Source: Enterococcus phage 9181. From it: a stretch of DNA of 64,000 nt. Position 1 is the first letter of the stretch, and each line of letters opens with the position of its first letter. Below the pieces are notes generated by a model. The model worked only from the letters and a program-made list of their open reading frames with translations, was not told where the DNA came from and searched no databases. Below, one piece after another: positions 20,698 to 51,800 of this stretch. Where the stretch lies: sequence record MT939240.1; one strand, written 5' to 3'. The translations under genes were made by a program, and so were the position numbers.

Positions 20698-20754
20698 CGC
20701 CTGCTCCTATTAGCGTTTGCGAAAGATTTTTCTATCTCTTAAATTTCTCGATTA

Positions 20755-20832
20755 TTTTCCTAACCTTCAAGTTTTTAAAAAATTTTCCTAACCTTCAAGT
20801 TTTTAAAAAATTTTCCTAACCTTCAAATTTTC
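20755..20832. repeat. tandem direct repeat, 2.7 copies of the 28 bp unit TTTTCCTAACCTTCAAGTTTTTAAAAAA (iteron-like)
   Basis: Exact 28-bp units at 20755-20782 and 20783-20810, then a degenerate third copy. Confidence 0.85.
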
Positions 20833-21182
20833 GTTTTATTTTTTTTTGACTTTCAAAAATCAAGAAATTTTTTCCTCTTAAGCTAAATTTTATACTTTTT
20901 TTCAATATACTATTTGAAATTCGTGTCATATACGAGCATTCTGGCGCCTTTTCAAAAGTCTTCCCGACCAATTACCCACTTAAAAACCTCAGGCAACGCC
21001 TCTGCCACACCTCGATCCACCACCTTGACCAAAAATGTTACGAATACACGCATCAAAAAGCGTTTAGTTAGTTTGAACGTAACAACTTTATGATCCTTTC
21101 AATAAAAGATATTTAATAAGCATACAGCAAAGCATATTCAGGAGCATATGAAATGCTGATTATGAGCATATGGAAACATGTT

Positions 21183-21317
21183 CCCCAGATTTTTGAAGAA
21201 CTTCACTTAAAATATAACAAAAACATCCCCAGAATTTTGCATACACTCCCCCAGATTTTAAAAGAAAATCACATAAAACATAGTAGTGGTGTGTGCGTGT
21301 GTGCCCCCAGATTTTTT
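21183..21317. repeat. four dispersed copies of a CCCC(C)AGA(A/T)TTTT motif, with a (GT)n tract at 21286-21303
   Basis: Copies at 21183, 21227, 21248 and 21304; the last two extend to about 30 bp of similarity (ccccagatttt..aaaa..cacataaaac). Confidence 0.8.
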
Positions 21318-21697
21318 AAAAAACACACATAAAACGTAATGAAAAACACTTACTTGAAAAGCTATCAAAATAACACTTTTTAAGTCAAAATTAAAGGAAA
21401 AAAATGCCCCTTTCCAGATCAATAAAATAACGAACTTCCTACCGAAAACATTAAAACCTTTAAAAGCGCCCTATTTTGCACACGTAAAAAAGCCTTGAAA
21501 GCCTTGATGTTATTGGGTTTGTGGCTGTTTTTAGTGTCCAATTTGTAAAAGTTTCTACTATTAAAAGCCACAAAAAAGAACGCCAAAAAACTTTTTAGGG
21601 AAAATAAGAGAAAACTCTTGTATTTATTTTCGATATGTATATAATAAAGAGTGTAGAGAACAACAAAACAAAAATAACAGCAAAAAGGGGGTTTTGG

Positions 21698-21784
21698 TAT
21701 GTTTGGCTTTTGGGTATCTATGTTAGTGATGTCTTTGCTAGTTTGTGGCTTTGTCGAGTGGTTAGGCAACGGCGAAAAGAAATA
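21698..21784 (+). CDS. tiny hydrophobic peptide (about 28 aa, MFGFWVSMLVMSLLVCGFVEWLGNGEKK)
   Basis: ATG at 21698 after AAAAGGGGG; a single TM helix. Confidence 0.3.
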
Positions 21785-21928
21785 ACAGAAAGTTGAAAAA
21801 AGTGTTTGACAACCTCGAAAATGTTTGATACACTTAATGAGTATTAAAAAGTAACATCTATTCGGACGAGCTTCAAAATGTTTCACTTATTCTAACTGTT
21901 TCAAAAATACACTTAAGGAGGTTTGCAC

Positions 21929-22036
21929 GTGTTTAATTATCGGAATGAAAAGCAACAAAAAGAGCGTGACTTTTTTACACGTTGGTTCATCATTCTAGGG
22001 GCTTTCATAGGAATTGCGTTGGCTTGGTTCATGTAA
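21929..22036 (+). CDS. tiny hydrophobic peptide (about 35 aa)
   Basis: GTG at 21929 after AAGGAGGT; C-terminal TM helix FIILGAFIGIALAWF. Confidence 0.35.
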   Translation: MFNYRNEKQQKERDFFTRWFIILGAFIGIALAWFM

Positions 22037-22091
22037 AAAGATTTTAAAAAGGACTTGCGAAGCAAGCGCCAAAATGCTATCATGAAAAAGT

Positions 22092-22141
22092 AGTCAAAAG
22101 GTTATAAAAAACTAACTTATAAAAAGGGGTTTTCAAAAATG
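22092..22141 (+). repeat. conserved leader repeat copy A (AGTCAAAAGGTTATAAAAAACTAACTTATAAAAAGGGGTTTTCAAAAATG)
   Basis: About 45 bp, nearly identical to 24774-24821 and, for the 3' 30 bp, to 22532-22564. Confidence 0.85.
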
Positions 22142-22546
22142 AAAATTATTAAAACAGTAGAAAAACTTATTGAACGTGCAGAAAGAAAAGGCGTCGCAAC
22201 TTTAAATAGAAAAGTAAATCAAGGTTACGGCGTTTATTACACTAGTGAAGTTTATCGAGTGGAAAAAGAGGGCAATATTTTCACGCTTTACCACTACGAA
22301 ACAAAAACATGCCAGATTGACACAGCAACAGAGGAAATTTTGTATGTTTATGGTGAAAGCGTAAGCGATGCGGATAGCATTTTTACTTTTTTACATTATT
22401 TCGATATCGTGCTATCGTTTGGCTATAAACCAGTAAACGGTGGGTTTTATGCCAGCGTTAACGGTAAACAAATATTTATAGATGACTTTGACCGATTGGA
22501 AAACTTCACCAAAGCAATTAAAAAAGAAATTAAAACTAACTTATAA
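22139..22546 (+). CDS. hypothetical protein
   Basis: Follows leader repeat A; 135 aa. Confidence 0.5.
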   Translation: MKIIKTVEKLIERAERKGVATLNRKVNQGYGVYYTSEVYRVEKEGNIFTLYHYETKTCQIDTATEEILYVYGESVSDADSIFTFLHYFDIVLSFGYKPVNGGFYASVNGKQIFIDDFDRLENFTKAIKKEIKTNL

Positions 22547-22564
22547 AAAGGAGTTTTCAAAATG
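22532..22564 (+). repeat. conserved leader repeat copy B
   Basis: AAAACTAACTTATAAAAAGGAGTTTTCAAAATG, overlapping the stop of the upstream gene. Confidence 0.85.
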
Positions 22565-23029
22565 AAAAAACTAACAAAAAACGAACAACATCAAAATGCA
22601 ATCGAAGAGGCAACTCAAAGACTTATCAAAAAAGTGAATGATGTTATTAATAGTCTTTCACAAGATGAAAAATTCTATACACTTTTAAATCTATCTCAGC
22701 AAGTTAACTCTTATGATTGTTCACTTGACACCTGTATCGAACCGATTTCATTTATTGATGACTATCTTGCAGAAATGCCTTTTCTGGAAGCATTACAAAA
22801 AATAGACATGGATAATTTTGACCCATTAGATGATTATCTAATCATGACTATCTATGGTATTGAATCGGCGGACGAGGCAAAAGCCTTAGAAGCTCTCGAA
22901 TTAATACAAGATGAAATAGTAGAGGGAACTATTTTAAATTGGGAACATATTTATTATTATGATATCAATGAAAATATAGTTAACCTCATCAACAAATTTT
23001 ATGAACTACTTGAAAGCAAAGAGGGGTAA
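22562..23029 (+). CDS. acidic hypothetical protein
   Basis: 155 aa; N-terminus MKKLT shared with 24819 at the nucleotide level. Confidence 0.5.
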   Translation: MKKLTKNEQHQNAIEEATQRLIKKVNDVINSLSQDEKFYTLLNLSQQVNSYDCSLDTCIEPISFIDDYLAEMPFLEALQKIDMDNFDPLDDYLIMTIYGIESADEAKALEALELIQDEIVEGTILNWEHIYYYDINENIVNLINKFYELLESKEG

Positions 23030-23032
23030 AAT

Positions 23033-23314
23033 TTGGCAACTAACTTCGAATTCATTCATAAGCAACTAGAGAGAAGCTTCCATCCCATCAATGACTTAAA
23101 ACGCTCGCAAGTTTTAATGCGACAAGAAACAAAAAACCTACTAACACAGATCAAGAAAGGGGCTTCCGTCAAAGATTTGGCGGAACCTTTGGAAAAAATG
23201 GTAAAAGACTTTGACCAACTAGCCTCGGACGTTCTTTCCGTGGAATGTTATGTTAGGTCAATAAAAAACCCCATTCAGGAATCACTAGGAAGGAGGGTCA
23301 ACAGTCATGACTAG
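23033..23314 (+). CDS. hypothetical protein
   Basis: 93 aa. Confidence 0.4.
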   Translation: MATNFEFIHKQLERSFHPINDLKRSQVLMRQETKNLLTQIKKGASVKDLAEPLEKMVKDFDQLASDVLSVECYVRSIKNPIQESLGRRVNSHD

Positions 23315-23612
23315 CCTATTAATTGGGGCGCTTGCTTTGGTTGGTTCGTTTACAGTCTATTATTACGCTTTCAAGGTTATATCAAACTTTTTAGACTGGA
23401 TGAATGATTTTAAGTATAAAATAGAAAGGCAATCACAAAAGACAAGGGATAAAATAGCCGTAAAAAAATTCCTTAAGGAAGAAAAAGAAAGAGAGTTACA
23501 AGAGGCAATCTTACGAATGAAAGCCGAAAAACTTAAAAAAGAGAAAATGTTAAGCGACCTAGCTAACGACTTAGAAAACGACGACACAAAAGAAGAGTAC
23601 AAAACTTTTTAA
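23307..23612 (+). CDS. hypothetical protein (N-terminal TM helix plus charged coiled coil)
   Basis: 101 aa. Confidence 0.4.
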   Translation: MTSLLIGALALVGSFTVYYYAFKVISNFLDWMNDFKYKIERQSQKTRDKIAVKKFLKEEKERELQEAILRMKAEKLKKEKMLSDLANDLENDDTKEEYKTF

Positions 23613-23633
23613 TTAAAAAGGAGACTGGAAAAC

Positions 23634-23972
23634 ATGGAAAACAAAAAAGAGTTATTCATAAATAAAGGAGAAAAAAGGACTCAAGTAACTGACGGAAAAA
23701 ATGCCGTATCATTCGAGCGTGTAAATAACGACATTTATGGAAATCCCCTCTACAGGGTGTATCCCGTAACTTATTCATTCAGAAGATTGAAAAGCGTATA
23801 CAGAAATTATGAGAGTAAAGGTTACTACCTTGTTCAATCCTATAACATTCTGGCAGATTGTGCCCGTATTATTGACGAGGTTAACAACCTTGTAACGCTT
23901 CCCGAAAATTGGCGAACTGATTTCGATTACTATAAGGCGCTCGGATACACAAAAACAACGGCATTTATATAA
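23634..23972 (+). CDS. hypothetical protein
   Basis: AAGGAGA RBS; 112 aa. Confidence 0.45.
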   Translation: MENKKELFINKGEKRTQVTDGKNAVSFERVNNDIYGNPLYRVYPVTYSFRRLKSVYRNYESKGYYLVQSYNILADCARIIDEVNNLVTLPENWRTDFDYYKALGYTKTTAFI

Positions 23973-24013
23973 AACGGATAAGAAAAGTTGAAAAATAAAT
24001 TAAAAGGTGGAAA

Positions 24014-24295
24014 ATGAAAATGAAAATGAAAAATAGAGAGTATGAAAAAATTAAAGAATCGTTGGCTGCTTTTGGTGTAGAAAAGATAATAGCATATAAG
24101 ATGCAACTCGAGGAGCTATTTGCTTCAGGTGAAAGCAACATAAAAAACGTAGAGACCCGCTTGATTTTTGAAGTGTATTATGCTTGTGTACCTAAGGAAT
24201 TGCGTAAGGATATTATGGACAATAACGATTATAACGACGCGCATATTAAAACAGCAGTAAAAAAAGCTTTGAAAGAGTTGGGGATTTTAAAATGA
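24014..24295 (+). CDS. hypothetical protein
   Basis: AAAGGTGGA RBS; 93 aa. Confidence 0.4.
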   Translation: MKMKMKNREYEKIKESLAAFGVEKIIAYKMQLEELFASGESNIKNVETRLIFEVYYACVPKELRKDIMDNNDYNDAHIKTAVKKALKELGILK

Positions 24296-24382
24296 ACGTG
24301 AAAGAGTAGGCTACACGAGAACAGGCAAAGGAAAACGGGCACGACCGCCGAAAACAAAACAATCAAAAAGGGGATAATTATC

Positions 24383-24538
24383 ATGCTAAACTTATTCATA
24401 TTTTTATCACTTGTCAAAGGTGCATTCATTCTATTCGCAATCATTTCTGTAATTGCCGTTATTGGAATTTTTGCAATGTCTCAAAAAGCACTAGAAACAA
24501 AAATCAAAGAATTAAAACAATCAGGAGGCAAGTGGTAA
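24383..24538 (+). CDS. tiny membrane peptide (51 aa)
   Basis: ATG after AAAGGGGA; TM helix FILFAIISVIAVIGIFA; ends 24538 and is followed immediately by another small ORF starting at 24540. Confidence 0.35.
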   Translation: MLNLFIFLSLVKGAFILFAIISVIAVIGIFAMSQKALETKIKELKQSGGKW

Positions 24539-24773
24539 AATGAAAAAAGCAAACATTCAAACAAAACTCGAAAAACTTTGGTTAACTTATGTAATACAGC
24601 CCGAAAAGGTTCGTAACGAGCTATCTTTTACGGATTGGGTTTGTGTCGATAAGGATTGGCTAGTGGAAGAAAGAGAAAGACAAGCGAGCGTCAAGGCAAC
24701 CAACTAAAAAAAACTAGAGAGGTTGGCAAGTTATACTTGTAAGCCTCTTTTTAATATGCTAATATAAAGGAGT

Positions 24774-24821
24774 AGTCAAAGAGCTATAAAAACTAACTTA
24801 TAAAAAGGGGTTTTCAAAATG
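24774..24821 (+). repeat. conserved leader repeat copy C
   Basis: AGTCAAAGAGCTATAAAAACTAACTTATAAAAAGGGGTTTTCAAAATG. Confidence 0.85.
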
Positions 24822-25268
24822 AAAAAACTAACAACGCTAATCATTATTACACTGGGAACGGTTCTGGCAACCTTTGCCACACCTCAAGAAACAAAGGCGG
24901 ACACACTAAACGAATACACGGGAACGGCGTTCGCAAAAACTTTTAAAGTTGAAATGAATAAAAAAGAATACTTGCTAGCGATTGGGCAATCTGATTTTTA
25001 TAGCTTCATACCTATGGAAAAAGCGAAGGAATTGGATATAAAAGAAGGACATATCTATAATATGTATTTTATGCGTGATAGTTATGAAGTATTTGCGATA
25101 GTTGACTATTCGGCGCCTCAATTTAAAGAGGGTAAAGACATCAAAGCACTACTTAACAACAATAAGAATTTCACGAAAGAGAATATCAAAGCAACAATCA
25201 AGGCGGAAGAAGATAACGCTATTCAGTGGGACTTAGGTATTACAATGGACAAGATAGCAAGCTTATAA
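24819..25268 (+). CDS. secreted protein with Sec signal peptide
   Basis: MKKLTTLIIITLGTVLATFATPQETKA|DT signal peptide; 149 aa; follows leader repeat C. Confidence 0.5.
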   Translation: MKKLTTLIIITLGTVLATFATPQETKADTLNEYTGTAFAKTFKVEMNKKEYLLAIGQSDFYSFIPMEKAKELDIKEGHIYNMYFMRDSYEVFAIVDYSAPQFKEGKDIKALLNNNKNFTKENIKATIKAEEDNAIQWDLGITMDKIASL

Positions 25269-25289
25269 AAGAGCTAACAAAGATTTAAC

Positions 25290-25318
25290 GAGGGGCGTTT
25301 GATACGCCTCTTTTTTAT
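25290..25318 (+). terminator. intrinsic terminator (gaggcg-tttgatac-gcctc plus T6)
   Basis: Read directly from the sequence. Confidence 0.6.
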
Positions 25319-26539
25319 GCCCTTAAATACTACTAACTAACGAAGCATATGAGAACATTAAGCGACCAACGGACAAGCGACGGAATAAACAGGCGCTTAT
25401 AATGCTCGTGTGTGCAATGATCTAATAAGGATACGGGAAGGCGTGTGTACTCCTTTAATAAGAGGCGTTTAAAATCCTTATAATATAGTTATGGGATAAG
25501 CTTGTGGGTTATGTAATGGATACACCTTTGACACACCCCCCCACTGATTGGCTGCCAGCAAGAAGCCCCTCACGGTAACCCTATATAATACTATATTAAA
25601 AGCCTCGCAGAACGTACGAGAAGCCTCTCTAATGTAATAGGTAAGTATATCATAATACTATTAAAAAGGTGGCAAAGTGTCTCTTTTGTAATAGTTAAAG
25701 GTAGCCCCATTTATTAGGCGTTAAGATAATCATCTGGCAATCATTTTCGGGAGGGGGCTATTTTATGCACGGGGCTTTTTGTGGTGGGCATTAGATTGGT
25801 GGGGCATAGCTTTGTCGGGGGCTTCTTATTGTGGTGGTTAAATAGTTTGCAAAGGTTTGGCTTTCCTTTGACGATACTGTTGTGATCCTTTTGAAATGGT
25901 AGTGGACTACGGACTCACACACCTAAAACACAATAGGGGTCGGGAGGTGTGGCAAAGGATCGGACACCCTACTAATCTCCCTACCATATTAATGGGATAA
26001 TCGAGGCATGACCACGCCACACACAACGCCCCATTCATGCCCTCTATAGTAAGGTGTATATGATGGGCTTCTCTTAGTTTACATAATGTACATTATACAA
26101 AGTAGTTTAATATATTAAGATAGCCTTGCCACGGCATGCATAGGGTAGCACCACACCACCACACACACGACCACGACAAGGCATGACCATCACTTCATAA
26201 TAACAACAGCACACACACCGCCCGTCACACCACCACACACCACGAGCCACGCACACAGGTGAATGACCATAGCATAACAGAACGGCAGGCACCCCGAAGG
26301 GAGGGGGTAACTTAAAATTTTTGACGCGAGCCCGTGGACACTCAGTCTCTTGGAAATTTCGGATTTTCCCAAAAGGGGTCGTCAATTTTATTTTTTCTGG
26401 ATTTCCTAAAGGGGCTCCGAAGCCTTTGCAATACCCTTACACACGAGGCGTTCACACAAGCTTTACACCTGATCCCACACTAGGCTTCACACACAAGTAA
26501 TACACACACGGAGTGAAGAAAAGGTTACACATGAGCAAT

Positions 26540-26653
26540 GCTAAACGCCGCTCTTATTATCATTCTGATGATACTTTCTAAGTGATCTTGTTGCCAACCA
26601 TCTTCCGATAAACGCCCCAATAGTTACCCACACCACTATCGTAAATACTCTCA
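26540..26653 (-). CDS. tiny hydrophobic peptide (37 aa)
   Basis: GTG start after ATAGGAGGAG on the minus strand; sequence RVFTIVVWVTIGAFIGRWL. Confidence 0.3.
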
Positions 26654-26843
26654 CAGCAAACTCCTCCTATATAAATCTAATAGCTTCTTTTACAGGCTCT
26701 GCGAACGGCAAGAACCTTGGGTCAATGTCTTCAATTTCCTTCTTAGTTAACTGGTAACCAGACTTACACCAGTAGCGTAGCTCTTCACTAGGAACCATCT
26801 TATAGTCATTTCGATCAGTGTTTACTTTAACGAGATACTGTCC

Positions 26844-27206
26844 TCAGATAATGACTTCGAAACGCTTCTCTCGATCCACTTCATAACCAACCTCCAAGGC
26901 TTTGAAAAAGGTCTTGACATTATGGTTTGATCCAAGCCATTCAGCTAGGTCTTCATCACAATCCTTGTTGTTGATAGCCTGCTCTATGCTAAAGGTGAAT
27001 CTACTAATAGATTTTTCCATCCGCTTGATAAACTCACCCACATATGGTGGCACTACTGGTTTCTCGAATGGGGCACCATCAATCTGTTCTACAACACACA
27101 AAGCATCCTCATAGGCAGCTTTCCTAGAAACGCTCTCTATATCATCCCATTCCTGTAAGTATCCAATAACGTTTTTTAACTGTCTGACTGCTTCTTGTTT
27201 GTCCAT
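26844..27206 (-). CDS. hypothetical protein, PVVP-EW family paralog
   Basis: Promoter and RBS upstream; shares the KPVVPPYVGEF motif with 31399..31830 and 32848..33402. Confidence 0.5.
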   Translation of the reverse strand: MDKQEAVRQLKNVIGYLQEWDDIESVSRKAAYEDALCVVEQIDGAPFEKPVVPPYVGEFIKRMEKSISRFTFSIEQAINNKDCDEDLAEWLGSNHNVKTFFKALEVGYEVDREKRFEVII

Positions 27207-27235
27207 CTAATTCCCCCTAATACTTTATACTCCTT

Positions 27236-27265
27236 ATTATACAGTATCAAAAGGGTTTCTGTCAA
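27236..27265 (-). promoter_or_regulatory. sigma-A-type promoter (minus strand: TTGACA, 18-nt spacer, TATAAT)
   Basis: Reverse complement: cttgacagaaacccttttgatactgtataat. Confidence 0.55.
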
Positions 27266-27298
27266 GCACAAAAAAGACACCCTTAAGGTGCCTCTTGG

Positions 27299-27544
27299 TT
27301 AGTCTAGTCCATGGTAATACTGTATTTCCTGTTGCTTGCCAATGATCACATAAAGGATATTACTGTTTGTAGTCGGCGTGATAACAGTCCCTCGATTGGA
27401 GAATTGTACAATACGGCTTTTAAACTGATTTGATACTTGGTCTGATGCCGTAGCTCCGTACAAGCTTTCCTTAACATAATAAGATAGCTTTTCCCCATCC
27501 TTGAAGACAATGGTTACCTCTCTGCACTTGTCACTTCTGCTCAT
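27299..27544 (-). CDS. hypothetical protein
   Basis: 81 aa; ATGA overlap with the upstream gene. Confidence 0.4.
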   Translation of the reverse strand: MSRSDKCREVTIVFKDGEKLSYYVKESLYGATASDQVSNQFKSRIVQFSNRGTVITPTTNSNILYVIIGKQQEIQYYHGLD

Positions 27545-38603: not shown

Positions 38604-39248
38604 ATGGGTAAAATACAAATAGGCTCACGATCCATTGATGACAGTCGCCAACGGAAGTATATGACAACTTCCCAAGAACCAACTACATTTGACGGAGTTG
38701 ATCTAACTACTCTAAAGCCTAAAATGAAACGTTTTGCAAGGCATTATATGTCTACCGTCAACGTAACTCAGTCAGCAGAAGCTTCTGGGTACACCCCTGC
38801 AAGTGGTTTCCGACTTCTAAAACGAGCGGATGTTCAAGCTTACCTACAGTGGTTAGTCACTGATGAAGCCAATGCGGACATCGCTTCCCCCACCGAAGTC
38901 CTAGAAGGATTGACACGGGCAGCTAACGGAGAAATGTATGACCAAGTTGTTTTGCAGAACGGTAAGATAGTTGAGAAAAGGATTGATGCAAAGGATCGTA
39001 TCTCAGCTTATAACACATTAGCTAAATTCCATGGCTTGCTTCAACCAGAAGTACAAGTCAATCAACAATTCAATATCAACGTGGATATCGTTGACGCTGT
39101 GGAAGATGATGCAGAAGTTATTGAACCTGATGAAGAAGAAATTGTCGATGGAGACTTCACGGAACTTGAATCAGATGAAGATGAAGAGGTTGTCTTTAAC
39201 TCTGCTGACTTTGATGCAGGATTCTTGGGAGGTATCGGTAAACAATGA
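38604..39248 (+). CDS. terS: terminase small subunit
   Basis: LKPKMKRFARHYMSTVNVTQSAEASGYTPASG matches the Terminase_2 family signature; acidic C-terminus; sits upstream of TerL. Confidence 0.85.
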   Translation: MGKIQIGSRSIDDSRQRKYMTTSQEPTTFDGVDLTTLKPKMKRFARHYMSTVNVTQSAEASGYTPASGFRLLKRADVQAYLQWLVTDEANADIASPTEVLEGLTRAANGEMYDQVVLQNGKIVEKRIDAKDRISAYNTLAKFHGLLQPEVQVNQQFNINVDIVDAVEDDAEVIEPDEEEIVDGDFTELESDEDEEVVFNSADFDAGFLGGIGKQ

Positions 39249-40522
39249 CAATGGAGCCAGCTAACATAAACCTAAAGATTACTAAACGCTTCTTTAATGA
39301 AGTTTACATGAAGTATATGTACAATCAACCACTGGGACAGAAACGTATCATGGTGTTCTATGGAGGAGCTGGTTCTGGTAAGTCTAAATTTGTAGTACAG
39401 AATGCCCTCCTCAAAGGTCTTAGTGAGAAGCGTAAGTTCCTAGTCTGTCGTAAAGTTGATAACACAATCCGTGACTCCATCTTTGCTGAGTTTGTACAAG
39501 GCTTACGAGAATTGAACATTTATGAGATATGTGATATTAAGAATAGTTATTTGACCATCACTCTTCCAAATGGGACTGAGTACATCTTCAAAGGGTTGGA
39601 AGACCCAGAACGGATCAAGTCCATCCAAGGTATCTCCGATATCATCATGGAGGAAGCAACTGAGTTTACCATAGATGACTATTCCCAGCTTAACTTGCGT
39701 CTTCGTAACAAAGCTATCAAGAATAACCAAATTACTCTTATGTACAACCCAGCTTCAAAGGCTAACTGGGTGTATGGAATGTTCCATGATCCTAAGAAGC
39801 CTAGACCAAAGAACTGTCAAGTTGTTCATACAACCTACAAAGACAATCGCTTCTTATCAGCCGATTACCTAGAGAACTTGAAAGACATGATGAATACTAA
39901 CCCAGTTTATTATGAAATCTATGCTTTAGGTAAGTTCGCAAGCCTTGGTAAGATGGTTTACACAAACTGGACTAGAGGTTCTCTTGACATCATGGAAGAG
40001 CTCAAGACTGGTAAGTGGAAACCTAAGTTCGGAATTGACTTTGGATTTAGTAATGACCCCACAGTAATCATTTCCATCCTCGTTAACGTAGAGGAAAAGA
40101 AGATTTACGTGTTTGATGAGTTCTATAAGACGGGTATGTTCAACAGACAAATATTTGAAGTCCTTAAGAAGAAGAACTTGTTGGGATATCATATGTTTGC
40201 TGACTCAGCAGCCCCAAAAGACATTGCAGAAATAAAACGACTTGGTGCTCGGTACTTGAAGCCTGCCAAGAAAGGTAAGGATTCCATTAACCACGGTATC
40301 CAATTCTTACAAGGTTACAAGATTATTGTAGACCCTCGTTGTAAGCATACTATTGAAGAGTTTGAAAACTATGGTTGGAAGAAAATCAAAGGAACTAACG
40401 AGTATGAGAACAAGCCAATGGATAACTTCAACCACTGTATGGATGCTCTTAGATATGCTGTTTCAGATATGATACCACGAAACACTGTAAGAACTATTAA
40501 TAAGTCACTACTTGGCTTATAA
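39245..40522 (+). CDS. terL: terminase large subunit (PBSX-like)
   Basis: Walker A FYGGAGSGKS; C-terminal nuclease acidic residues; 425 aa. Confidence 0.85.
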   Translation: MTMEPANINLKITKRFFNEVYMKYMYNQPLGQKRIMVFYGGAGSGKSKFVVQNALLKGLSEKRKFLVCRKVDNTIRDSIFAEFVQGLRELNIYEICDIKNSYLTITLPNGTEYIFKGLEDPERIKSIQGISDIIMEEATEFTIDDYSQLNLRLRNKAIKNNQITLMYNPASKANWVYGMFHDPKKPRPKNCQVVHTTYKDNRFLSADYLENLKDMMNTNPVYYEIYALGKFASLGKMVYTNWTRGSLDIMEELKTGKWKPKFGIDFGFSNDPTVIISILVNVEEKKIYVFDEFYKTGMFNRQIFEVLKKKNLLGYHMFADSAAPKDIAEIKRLGARYLKPAKKGKDSINHGIQFLQGYKIIVDPRCKHTIEEFENYGWKKIKGTNEYENKPMDNFNHCMDALRYAVSDMIPRNTVRTINKSLLGL

Positions 40523-48833: not shown

Positions 48834-51800
48834 ATGGCAGATAATGAAATGAGAATAAAAATCGTTGTTGACCAATCTCAGTACCAAAGCGCCATGAAGA
48901 ATTTGGGAAAACAACAAGGAAGCCTTATCGACGGGTTCGGCAAAGCTGGTAAAGCTGGTGGACTCTTCGGAAGGCAAGTATCACAAGGTATGGAGCAAGC
49001 CTCTAGCTCAGCATCCAAAGGTGTGAAGGCGTGGTCAAGTTTTAACACTGGCTTTGGTACAGTGACTGCTGCCTTAACCCCATTCACACTAGCTATGCAA
49101 GCTGGGGGTAAAGCCATTGGTGCTGCTGGTGGGTTCATTAAGAGCTCTCTATCAGACTATGCAACCTTTGAATCAACCTTGAAACAGGTTCAGATTATCG
49201 CAGGTGGTACAGATGCCGACATGAAACTCTTGGGAGACACCGCTAAAAAACTTGGTGCCAACACCTCCATCGGTGCTCAAGAAGTAGCTAACGCCGAGGT
49301 AGAGTTTGCTAAGTTAGGTTTCACGGCTTCTGAAACGGCAGATGCCATGACTGGTATTGTTTACGCTTCTGAGGCTTCTGGATCATCCATGGAAACAACT
49401 TCAACCATCGTAGCTTCCGCCCTAAACACATGGAACCTTAAGGCTTCTGACGCTACCCATGTAGCTGATGTGCTTGCTCAAACAGCTAACCAAACTGCTG
49501 CAGACATGACAGACTTGGGATATACTTTCCAGTATGCTGGGGCAACGGCTCAGTTAGGTGGAGCTTCCATGGAACAGCTTGCTGCCTATACTGGTATCAT
49601 GGCTGACCAAGGTATCAAAGGTTCTAAAGCTGGTACAACATTGCGTACAGCATTTATTAATTTGACTAAACCTACAGAGGGTGCAGCGGCTAAGTTACAA
49701 GAGTTAGGAGTCAACCTTAAGGATACCGAGGGTAATGCTCGTCCTATCCCATCGGTAATTGCTGACTTGCAAGACAAGATGCAAGGTATGTCTAAGTCTG
49801 ACATCATGGATATTTCCACAATCCTGTTTGGTAAAACTGGTGCTGCTGGCATGTCAATGGTCTTGCAAAAGACTTCAAAAGAGACTGCTGACCTTACTAA
49901 ATCATTAGTAGACTCTACAGGAACAGCCGAAGCTCAAGCTAAAAAGATGCGTGAGACTTTAGCTGGTCAGTTAGACCAAATACAGGATGGCTTTGCAACC
50001 TTAAAACTTAAGATCGGTGAAGCCTTCGCTCCCCTAGCCACAGAAGGTGCTAAGGCTATCAACGGAGTCTTGGATGATCTATCTGGAAAGGTAGACCAAG
50101 CAGCAGTATCATTCAAAGGATTTACTGAATCGGCTAACTTCGGAGCAATGAAACAATCATTCGGAGAGCTCGCAGGAGCTGCTGGTGACATGTTCGACAA
50201 GATGTTGGGTAGTGGTGGTTTCAAAGCCATTGCTGACGATGTTGTACAGTTCAGCACACAGATTGCTAACGCTGGGACAGACTTAATGGACTTTGCAAGT
50301 AAATCAGGTGGGGCGATAGACTTCTTCGATGATCTTAACCAGAAATTAAAAGATGCTTCTAAGGCTGTGGAAGAAGCCAACCCAATTGCTCAAGGATTGA
50401 ACAAGCTTTTTGGTAAAGACAAATCCAAAGAAGCTGAGAATCACGCTACGGCTGTTGGTAAGTTTGCTTTAGCGGTTCGTAACATGAATGTCAACGCCCG
50501 TGAAATTCAAGCTGACCCATTCTCTTCAATGAACATTCCTAAAGCTGAGGCTGAAATGAGACTTATCGGGACGACCATGGCTGACCTTACTGAAAAGGGT
50601 AAAAACTTTACTCTTATTGACGAGACGCAAGTGACAGCTTTCCAAGGTGCTACACAGACTATTCAAACAGACTTGAACCAACTTACAGCTAAGGTTACTG
50701 CTGAGAATGCTAAGTATGCTCAAGACCCAAGTTACAATCCTGCTGGAGCATTAGCAAAAGCTACTCAAGCGAGCCTACCTGCCGTACAAGAGGCTTTGAA
50801 TACTCAAGTAGCAACCACTCAAGCAGCTAACACTAAACAATTGGATATACTTACTCAGTTTATGGGAGAACAAACCTTGCTTACCACTGAGCAACAAGCT
50901 AATTTATTAGCAGCTGTTCAGACGGGTAATGACCAACAGGTTGCTGAGCAACAAACCCGTAACCAAGAGATATTAACTATCTACCAAAACTTGTCTAACA
51001 TGACTGTTGACGAGCGTAACAGAGGTCTTGCAAGAATCGCTGACCTTGAGAGACAAAACACTGCTCAAGTAGTTCAAGAGGCTAACATCCGCTCTGAATC
51101 AATTATACAAACCCTAGCTGCCCAAGTAGCTGCCACAGGTAGTTTGTCAGAGGAACAAAAACAAACGGCTATCACTGCTGCTAACACCCAACGTGACGAA
51201 ACTGTTAAAGCTGCCCAAGACCAGTATGTACAACGTGTAGCCGCCATTAAGAACATGACAACAGAAGAGGTTACTGCCTCTGGACACTCCCGTGATGAAC
51301 TTATCCGAGCTGCTGCCGATACCATGATTGGTACAGTTGGTCACGCTGAGACAATGCGTACTGAAACGGTTGGTAAGATTGAGGACATAGCTGCTAAAGC
51401 TGCTGAAACAGACGGTACTAAGATTAACATCGACGCCCTTACACATGGTTTCGACGACGCTGTTCAACAGATGGAACGTGTACTTTCTTATAATGGTAGG
51501 ACAGTTACAATTCCTGTAATGACAACTACTGTAGCTGGTTCGGTAGATGCTGCCAAGGCTGCTGGCGGACCTGTTCCTACAAAGGCTCGTGGGGGTTTGA
51601 CAAGCGGAGTTGCTGCCACTATGGGTACAGGTCAAACCACCTTCAATGTAGGCGCCTCTGCTGCTGGTCAAGGTACTCAACTAGGTCAAGGAGGGTTCTC
51701 AATGTCCGGTGGTGGAGTTATTACCAATGAACGTGGAAGAGAAGTTACTATGCCTGTTGGGAACACCACCTACATGAGACCTTTCGCAAGAGCCATTGCT

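Follow-up and report, generated by a model that had tools for sequence, protein, structure and literature searches.

Short direct repeats have been described at the ends of the linear genomes of Saphexavirus, a group of Enterococcus phages. Restriction mapping of phage SE indicated fixed ends with a repeat of ~300 bp (PMC11510935), and PhageTerm assigned short direct terminal repeats, 'DTR (short)', to three other saphexaviruses (PMC11465766). In the sequence records, the repeat is annotated as 340 bp in TV16 (MN939408) and 343 bp in SE (PP583004), in both cases within a gene-free island, which in IME-EF1 spans ~1.1 kb between two converging gene blocks. About ten Saphexavirus records, retrieved by comparing the IME-EF1 island with all phage records, are opened inside this island at nearly identical coordinates. 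Here we analyzed 64,000 nt of Enterococcus phage 9181 (MT939240.1; this whole stretch is hereafter called the window), a siphophage of ~72 kb, in which a gene-free island lies at 25269-26540 between the same converging blocks. Most likely, the two ends of the linear phage genome lie in this island, in which the predicted terminal repeat contains a sequence closely matching dif, the chromosomal site of the host recombinases XerC and XerD.

Comparable arrangements are known from other phages. In the T7-type concatemer junction, a terminal repeat is flanked by short-repeat arrays and packaging signals. Phage P1 cyclizes its injected genome without RecA by Cre-loxP recombination in terminally redundant DNA, with its own recombinase and permuted headful ends. 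The viruses known to exploit Xer recombination in the retrievable literature are filamentous phages and gokushoviruses. No account linking dif or Xer to the terminal repeats of tailed phages was found in that literature, the coverage of which was incomplete, and a prior description is possible. The terminal-repeat region is of a known kind, whereas its host-dif mimic, found in tailed phages with Saphexavirus relatives reported to be lytic, appears to be a new element.

The gene-free island and the predicted genome ends

Along the window, phage 9181 is 85-94% identical to EH802P2 and is also close to EH802P1, EH93P1 and EH93P2, all four of which were isolated on E. hirae. By DNA polymerase, the next relatives are the E. 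gallinarum phages EG103P1-3 (53%) and Saphexavirus (about 50-55%), and the terminase subunits TerL and TerS share 65% and 54% identity with their IME-EF1 counterparts. A distant relative in IMG/VR, the 72,375 nt contig L258, encodes flanking proteins that are 27-65% identical. The original prediction, made from the letters of the window, had proposed BLASTN against related phages as a check on the island; the island proved to be conserved at ~86%, about equal to the surrounding genes, and a distant blastn search matched the four EH phages only. Searching IMG/VR for close relatives with two invariant strings of the island and both flanking proteins gave no match.

The island is bounded by the stop codon of a + strand gene on the left and that of a minus-strand open reading frame (ORF) on the right. 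The + strand gene block to the left (22139-25268) is closed by a strong terminator, which had been predicted and was recovered by a terminator scan; it is identical in EH802P2 and EH93P1 and is kept in L258. The right edge had been set at 26545, close to the stop of the minus-strand ORF at 26541. The absence of genes was likewise borne out: the ORFs that have a start codon reach 92 aa at most, no coding sequence is annotated in the island of the close relatives (4/4), and none of the stop-free stretches of the island matches Pfam. A hidden gene was rejected for this lack of Pfam matches and because the length of the stop-free stretches varies among relatives (109, 90 and 52 codons). Neither a conserved strong promoter in the island nor a tRNA or tmRNA was found. 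Within the DNA between the terminator and the predicted repeat, a block at 25600-25700 is 90-96% conserved and is recognizable in TV16 and L258.

We mapped the annotated repeats of TV16 and SE onto the window by an alignment of seven sequences with four conserved anchors; those shared by the island and the TV16 junction are few, short and colinear. The repeat predicted in this way has the same length as that of SE (Table 1), and both of its boundaries fall on conserved motifs. At the left boundary, TV16 reads GACTGACA/CTAAACAAGGCA and the window TTAATGGG/ATAATCGAGGCA, where the slash marks the boundary. At the right boundary, TV16 reads GCGCGCGAC/TGTCCATCTC and the window GTGGAC/ACTCAGTCTC, and the corresponding sequences are GAC/AGTCAGCCTC in IME-EF1, CAC/TATCAGCCTC in EG103P1 and CAC/ACCCAGCCTC in L258. 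Placed by homology, the boundaries should be good to roughly +/-10 nt. The homologous terminase, the position in the gene order, the boundary motifs and the length all agree with a terminal repeat of the Saphexavirus type.

The predicted repeat is flanked by arrays of the same geometry in both phages. On its left, the window has GGGGC runs (25754, 25771, 25801 and 25818) at a distance of 180-245 nt, and TV16 has GGGCG runs at 160-245 nt, arrayed at 385-468 before a repeat that starts at 628; a comparable array of G-runs is present at this distance in L258. On the right, YNACAC motifs recur at 26437, 26452, 26463, 26475 and 26487 with a period of ~12 bp, ~100-150 nt from the repeat. The TV16 repeat ends at 967 and is followed at the same distance by YCCGA motifs at 1049, 1061, 1073 and 1084, also with a ~12 bp period. 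Arrays that share their geometry but not their motif fit a recognition site co-evolving with its binding protein. The YNACAC array is therefore a candidate recognition array for the terminase small subunit, and together with the G-run array it likely provides recognition and processing signals for the terminase. Of the functions first considered for the island, a genome terminus and a pac/terminase region are thus supported by homology and synteny with the annotated Saphexavirus repeats.

In these respects, the locus resembles that of TV16, SE, BC611 and IME-EF1, in which a gene-free island of 1.1-1.3 kb separates the end of the early block near terS from that of the block following the replication genes, with a repeat of 340-343 bp, conserved boundary motifs, a G-run array on one side and a ~12 bp periodic array on the other. 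There are also differences. On the + strand, the predicted repeat has a C/A-rich right half in phage 9181 but a G-rich one in TV16, the periodic motif is CACAC instead of CCGAC, the genome is 72 kb instead of 57 kb, and the ends are mapped in SE but inferred here. The T7-type junction shares the short exact terminal repeat, the arrays of short repeats on both sides and the gene-free DNA, but belongs to another virus family and terminase lineage and is not known to have an Xer site.

Two further observations concern the terminus region. An imperfect inverted repeat (25885-25902 and 25981-25998; 18 nt arms, 78% complementary, 78 nt apart) lies next to the terminal repeat, and the end of its right arm coincides exactly with the left boundary predicted for that repeat; it is partly conserved in relatives and could be relevant to end processing. 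In addition, an I-HmuI-like HNH homing endonuclease gene lies at the right edge of the island in EH93P1 (L003, 4141-4638) and EH93P2, and HNH homing endonuclease genes are also found inside the matching island of the Saphexavirus records SSsP-1, Entf1 and EF-P29. Such insertions in several phages mark the terminus region as a landing site for mobile endonuclease genes.

Table 1. Features of the island of phage 9181 (window coordinates)
Feature	Position	Strand	Basis or remark
Intrinsic terminator	25290..25319	+	Terminator scan: 9 bp stem (25290-25312) and T-run; strong
Gene-free subterminal DNA, inside predicted right end of virion genome	25320..25996		No coding sequence in relatives
G/T-rich tract: G-run array with GTGGTGG-type motifs	25740..25860	+	140-260 nt left of predicted repeat
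Predicted direct terminal repeat, 343 bp	25997..26339		One copy in assembled/concatemeric sequence; alignment to TV16 and SE repeats
Two AGGCATGACCA copies bracketing the dif-like site	26004-26014, 26179-26189	+	Repeat search
dif-like XerC/XerD site, 28 bp	26076..26103	-	Arms match Enterococcus chromosomal dif
C/A-rich tract inside predicted repeat	26146..26262	+	45-160 nt on XerC-arm side of dif-like site
Gene-free DNA just inside predicted left end	26340..26540		Conserved block ATTTTATTTTTTCTGGA (26385-26401) and YNACAC array
Probable 37 aa membrane peptide gene, right border of island	26541..26654	-	GGAGGA-N7-GTG upstream, hydrophobic product

A dif-like site and its surroundings

The best-conserved block in the pairwise comparison with TV16 was TAGTTTACATAATGTACATTATACAAAGT (E = 4.5e-6). 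Used as a degenerate pattern against metagenomes, it matched >120 contigs of soil, wetland and gut origin that were unrelated and differed in their flanks, and was thereby recognized as dif. The dif sequence published for the E. mundtii QU25 chromosome is ACTTTGTATAATATATATTATGTAAACT (PMC4131831), and the arms in the window are identical to it at 22/22 positions, with differences at two positions of the center. On the + strand, the phage site consists of the XerD arm AGTTTACATAA, the center TGTACA and the XerC arm TTATACAAAGT; in the canonical orientation, on the minus strand, it reads ACTTTGTATAA-TGTACA-TTATGTAAACT. This is the single match in the window, and none was obtained in 100 shuffles (0/100) even at three mismatches. 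The original prediction had overlooked this site.

The site lies ~80 nt inside the predicted left boundary of the terminal repeat, as compared with 79-89 nt in Saphexavirus. It was found in about 74 Enterococcus phage records of the phage collection and is conserved in all relatives compared. Where a genome record is opened at the left end, the site begins at about nt 89-90, and an IMG/VR contig of 53,996 nt carries it at both ends. The XerD arm AGTTTACATAA is invariant among the phages, and the XerC arm has 0-2 differences from that of the window. The center varies (+ strand): TGTACA in the window, TACATG in EH802P2, EH93P1 and L107, TGTGTA in EG103P1 and L258, and TACACA in saphexaviruses. 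All of these centers differ from TATATA by transitions only, and the alternation of purines and pyrimidines is always kept.

For comparison, we scanned one genome per bacterial species for host sites. Exact arms were found in 98 sites, mostly one per genome and in a few cases with a second copy, from Enterococcus, Vagococcus, Tetragenococcus, Carnobacteriaceae and some lactobacilli; in complete Enterococcus chromosomes, dif is located at about 50% of the chromosome length. The host center is TATATA in 82/98 and TGTATA in 7/98 sites, and none of the 98 has a phage center. For E. faecalis, a low-coverage host contig together with matching metagenome contigs points to TGTATA as the center; relative to this probable dif, phages of E. 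faecalis deviate at one center and one XerC-arm position. Phage and chromosomal sites thus share both 11 bp arms, a 6 bp spacer and purine/pyrimidine alternation, but the phage center here is TGTACA and the site is placed in a terminal repeat instead of at the replication terminus. The center is by definition the same in both copies of the phage repeat, whereas 1-2 positions differ from the host centers.

Next to the host sites, the flank GGCGAATGTTAGGATTAAG adjoins the E. faecalis dif (L234, OR846648, the low-coverage contig, 901-960) and also the second dif-like copies in several Enterococcus genomes (L153, L190, L225, L149 and L197). It looks like one end of an uncharacterized element that Xer integrated at dif in enterococci.

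No tyrosine or serine recombinase was detected among the 89 ORFs of the window, of which the larger unassigned ones were also scanned singly (~8 kb of the genome lie outside the window), and none is listed in the annotation of EH802P2. A RuvC-like resolvase is present among the window ORFs.

Similar sites occur in unrelated phages. Several IMG/VR phage contigs without similarity to the window (L246, L264, L244, L255, L262, L252, L257 and L237) carry perfect XerD arms with non-host centers, and in two of them the site is 78-98 nt from the contig end (L246, 79-106; L264, 98-125), as in the saphexavirus repeats. Bacillus phage Anath (MG983742), an unrelated 52 kb phage, has the dif-like site AGTTTACATAA-TAGATA-TTATACGAAGT in a converging intergenic gap (record 51035-51064; L231, 1306-1335). 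Anath encodes an FtsK-like protein (listed at L233, 41673-42923) and an antirepressor and has no annotated integrase; L089 and L251 are relatives. A match in Bacillus phage P59 lies inside a coding sequence and was set aside as a chance match. The dif-like sites with non-host centers in Anath and in unrelated Firmicutes phage contigs suggest that mimicry of dif may reach beyond this clade and may be a widespread strategy.

The site is surrounded by DNA of unusual composition, in agreement with the original prediction of a distinct island passing from G/T-rich to C/A-rich on the + strand. The GC content is 0.40-0.52 in the island versus roughly 0.30-0.42 in the flanks, and the GC skew is +0.37 at 25700-25899 and -0.32 at 26100-26299, with a change of sign near 25990. 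CACAC occurs 23 times in the island versus 0.9 expected from the rest of the window, and 22/23 copies lie at 25916-26505 on the + strand; GTGTG has only four copies in the island. The GGGGC(T/A)TTT..GTGGTGG units reported for the G/T-rich tract were confirmed in their G-runs, but as repeats they are loose: a repeat search found two 26 nt copies with 73% identity. The motifs of this tract are only partly conserved in EH802P2 and EH93P1, which have many substitutions there. The C/A-rich tract is nearly invariant across the four EH-like sequences, and L258 has a CA-rich tract at the same place; Tandem Repeats Finder reported only CA repeats of 8 to 12 nt in the island. The short repeat AGGCATGACCA, correctly noted as occurring twice, is kept as AAGGCAYRACCA in EH802P2, EH93P1 and L107, although in L107 the second copy has one additional change.

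The two tracts bracket the dif-like site such that the G-rich strand points toward it from both sides, a polarity that resembles that of the host terminus. In 734 kb around the 98 host dif sites, GAAGAAG (264:64) and GAAGAGG (104:8) are polar, whereas the words of the tracts are not (GTGGTGG, 34:28; GTGTGTG, 9:10), and the GAAGAAG-type motifs that flank host dif are not copied by the phage island. Mimicry of FtsK-orienting motifs by the tracts was therefore rejected. A Chi-like role of GTGGTGG was also rejected, since this word has no polarity around host dif and is not conserved in EH802P2; no Enterococcus Chi was found in the retrievable literature.

Proposed role of the site and rival explanations

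We favor, with moderate confidence, the interpretation that the island is the terminus, or concatemer junction, and packaging region of the genome, and that its terminal repeat holds a mimic of the host dif that XerC/XerD could use. In replicating DNA, the island would be the junction between genome copies, and the ~343 bp repeat would be present at both ends of the packaged DNA. The injected DNA would then carry two dif-like sites in direct orientation, between which host XerC/XerD could recombine to give a circular genome with one repeat and a released linear fragment of repeat length. Such cyclization would need neither RecA nor a phage protein, as the host enzymes are already present at injection, and the phage-specific center would permit exchange between phage sites while hindering crossover with the host dif. 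This model would account for the retention of the site inside the repeat in every lineage. A more general proposal, that lytic Enterococcus siphophages (all Saphexavirus and the 72 kb relatives) keep a dif mimic in the repeat and circularize through host XerC/XerD without RecA, is offered tentatively, as less likely than not.

Among known systems, P1 similarly has a recombination site in its terminal redundancy, with two direct copies on the linear genome; in the present case, however, the recombinase would be the host's and the ends would be fixed. CTXphi, VGJphi, TLCphi and gokushoviruses are also viruses or virus-like elements with a dif-like site and without their own integrase. They are, however, phages or satellites with small single-stranded DNA genomes, and dif is where they integrate, whereas phage 9181 is a 72 kb tailed phage with relatives reported to be strictly lytic. 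Its site lies in a predicted terminal repeat, no integrated copy was seen at the 98 host loci (0/98), and no XafT-like activator was found.

Several points weigh against this interpretation. The GenBank records of the close relatives are opened outside the island with only a 55 nt assembly overlap, the ends of the clade are assigned by homology, and alignment of the island with Saphexavirus is confined to four or five short anchors. The terminus model gives no role to the G/T-rich and C/A-rich tracts, which were the core of the original observation, and the G/T motifs are only partly conserved. Binding and action of XerC/XerD at the site, as well as the purpose of this action, are proposals made from the match to dif. 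Xer recombination at dif in E. coli needs FtsK at the septum, and no FtsK-like or XafT-like activator was found among the 89 window ORFs. Moreover, a 343 bp repeat could circularize or concatemerize by ordinary homologous recombination, in which case the dif-like site may serve otherwise.

One such alternative, which we consider unlikely, accepts the island as the terminus but has the dif-like site act late, in resolving circular dimers, in processing intermediates or by binding XerD only, for example to interfere with host chromosome segregation. It draws on the same sequence evidence. The plasmid Xer sites cer and psi resolve multimers with the help of adjacent accessory sequences, and the conserved C/A-rich tract is located on the XerC-arm side, where plasmid accessory sequences sit. 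Packaging from terminal repeats, however, needs concatemers, so that resolution to monomers would harm the phage, and late action leaves the retention of the site inside the repeat in every lineage unexplained.

The site might instead be an attachment site, through which XerC/XerD would occasionally integrate the phage at the host dif, with the island still being the terminus region. The presence of a dif-like site without a detected integrase is compatible with this, as is the pairing of the center TGTGTA of E. faecalis saphexaviruses with the inferred host center TGTATA, which differ at one position and are identical in the XerC-side half. Elements that integrate by XerC-only exchange, such as CTXphi, share this half-identical arrangement, and Anath combines a dif-like site with an FtsK-like gene and an antirepressor. 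Nevertheless, phage-like flanks were found at none of the 98 host dif loci (0/98; 8 kb or less each, one genome per species). Integration does not require a site inside the terminal repeat, where it is always found, and the EH-like and EG103 phages have two center mismatches, one per half, to the TATATA of the close relatives of their hosts. These phages are also described as lytic (PMC11465766, PMC11510935). We judge occasional integration to be rather improbable.

It is also improbable that the ends are not short direct repeats at all but cohesive ends or headful ends generated from elsewhere, the island being a spacer with a chance dif-like site. The EH records are opened arbitrarily and the ends of this clade are predicted by homology, which leaves room for this view; against it stand the terminase identities of 65% and 54% to phages in which terminal repeats have been mapped, the conserved boundary motifs, the repeat length and the matching flanking arrays.

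A replication origin, another function originally considered, is very doubtful. The island is gene-free and has short dispersed repeats and a change of GC skew near 25990, but it contains neither tandem iterons nor an AT-rich unwinding region, and the skew switch is also explained by converging transcription units. A second gene-free region at 20700-21350, between the replication genes and the small-gene block, is a better candidate for an origin or early control region. Its iteron-like repeats (20743-20826 and 21183-21345) comprise three 28 nt direct repeats TTTTCCTAACCTTCAAGTTTTTAAAAAA and four CCCCAGATTTT units, and they are followed by strong promoter-like sequences at about 21600-22090; in EH802P2, ~2 kb matching this region are left unannotated.

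Hardly credible, finally, are two other parts of the original prediction, namely that the island specifies a structured noncoding RNA, which would be a long one, or that its two tracts pair over a long range: the large conserved gene-free region, its unusual composition and a weak conserved terminator-like hairpin on the minus strand (25603-25621, containing ACGAGAAGCC) speak for them, but Rfam gave no hit, either at gathering scores across the entire window or at a permissive E<=1 for 24500-27500, the fold of 25700-26300 did not exceed shuffled sequences significantly in stability (+ strand, z = -1.24; minus strand, z = -0.44), no inverted-repeat arm joins 25740-25860 with 26150-26260, which had been called loosely complementary, the G/T-rich tract varies in EH802P2 and EH93P1 without compensation in the C/A-rich tract, and a conserved strong promoter is lacking in the island. 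Of the four functions first considered, terminus and packaging region are supported, and RNA and origin are not.

Neighboring genes and implications

The minus-strand ORF at the right border of the island is probably a real gene; it has a good ribosome-binding site, and its reading frame is kept in EH802P2 despite a 3 nt indel. Beside the island, a DUF1642-family gene (26667-27206, minus strand) is split into parts of 120 aa and 43 aa, while EH802P2 has an intact gene of 177 aa; either a sequencing error or a genuine mutation (nonsense or frameshift) could account for the split. The TerL gene of EH802P2 (L004, 47471-49601) is annotated in two pieces around an extra ORF, whereas the window gene (39245-40522) is intact and lacks ~850 nt of the EH802P2 locus; the insertion is probably a mobile intron, intein or endonuclease. 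An identical 29 nt leader, AACTAACTTATAAAAAGGrGTTTTCAAAA, for which no occurrence is expected by chance, is located at 22110-22138, 22534-22562 and 24791-24819, ending at the start codons of three + strand genes of the small-gene block. The leader may serve these genes as a common signal in translation or regulation.

Viewed as a genome terminus, the island is nothing unusual, but it gives annotators the probable true ends and the correct opening point for genomes of this clade. If the proposed use of the dif-like site is true, exploitation of Xer recombination would become known for the first time in a lytic tailed phage. The Saphexavirus relatives are reported to be lytic and are under development against drug-resistant Enterococcus, many of them being candidates for phage therapy. 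An active site would explain how the injected linear genome escapes exonucleases and is converted to a replication template. It would also make host xerC and xerD possible phage-dependency, and hence resistance, genes, and would raise the safety question of rare recombination with the host chromosome at dif.

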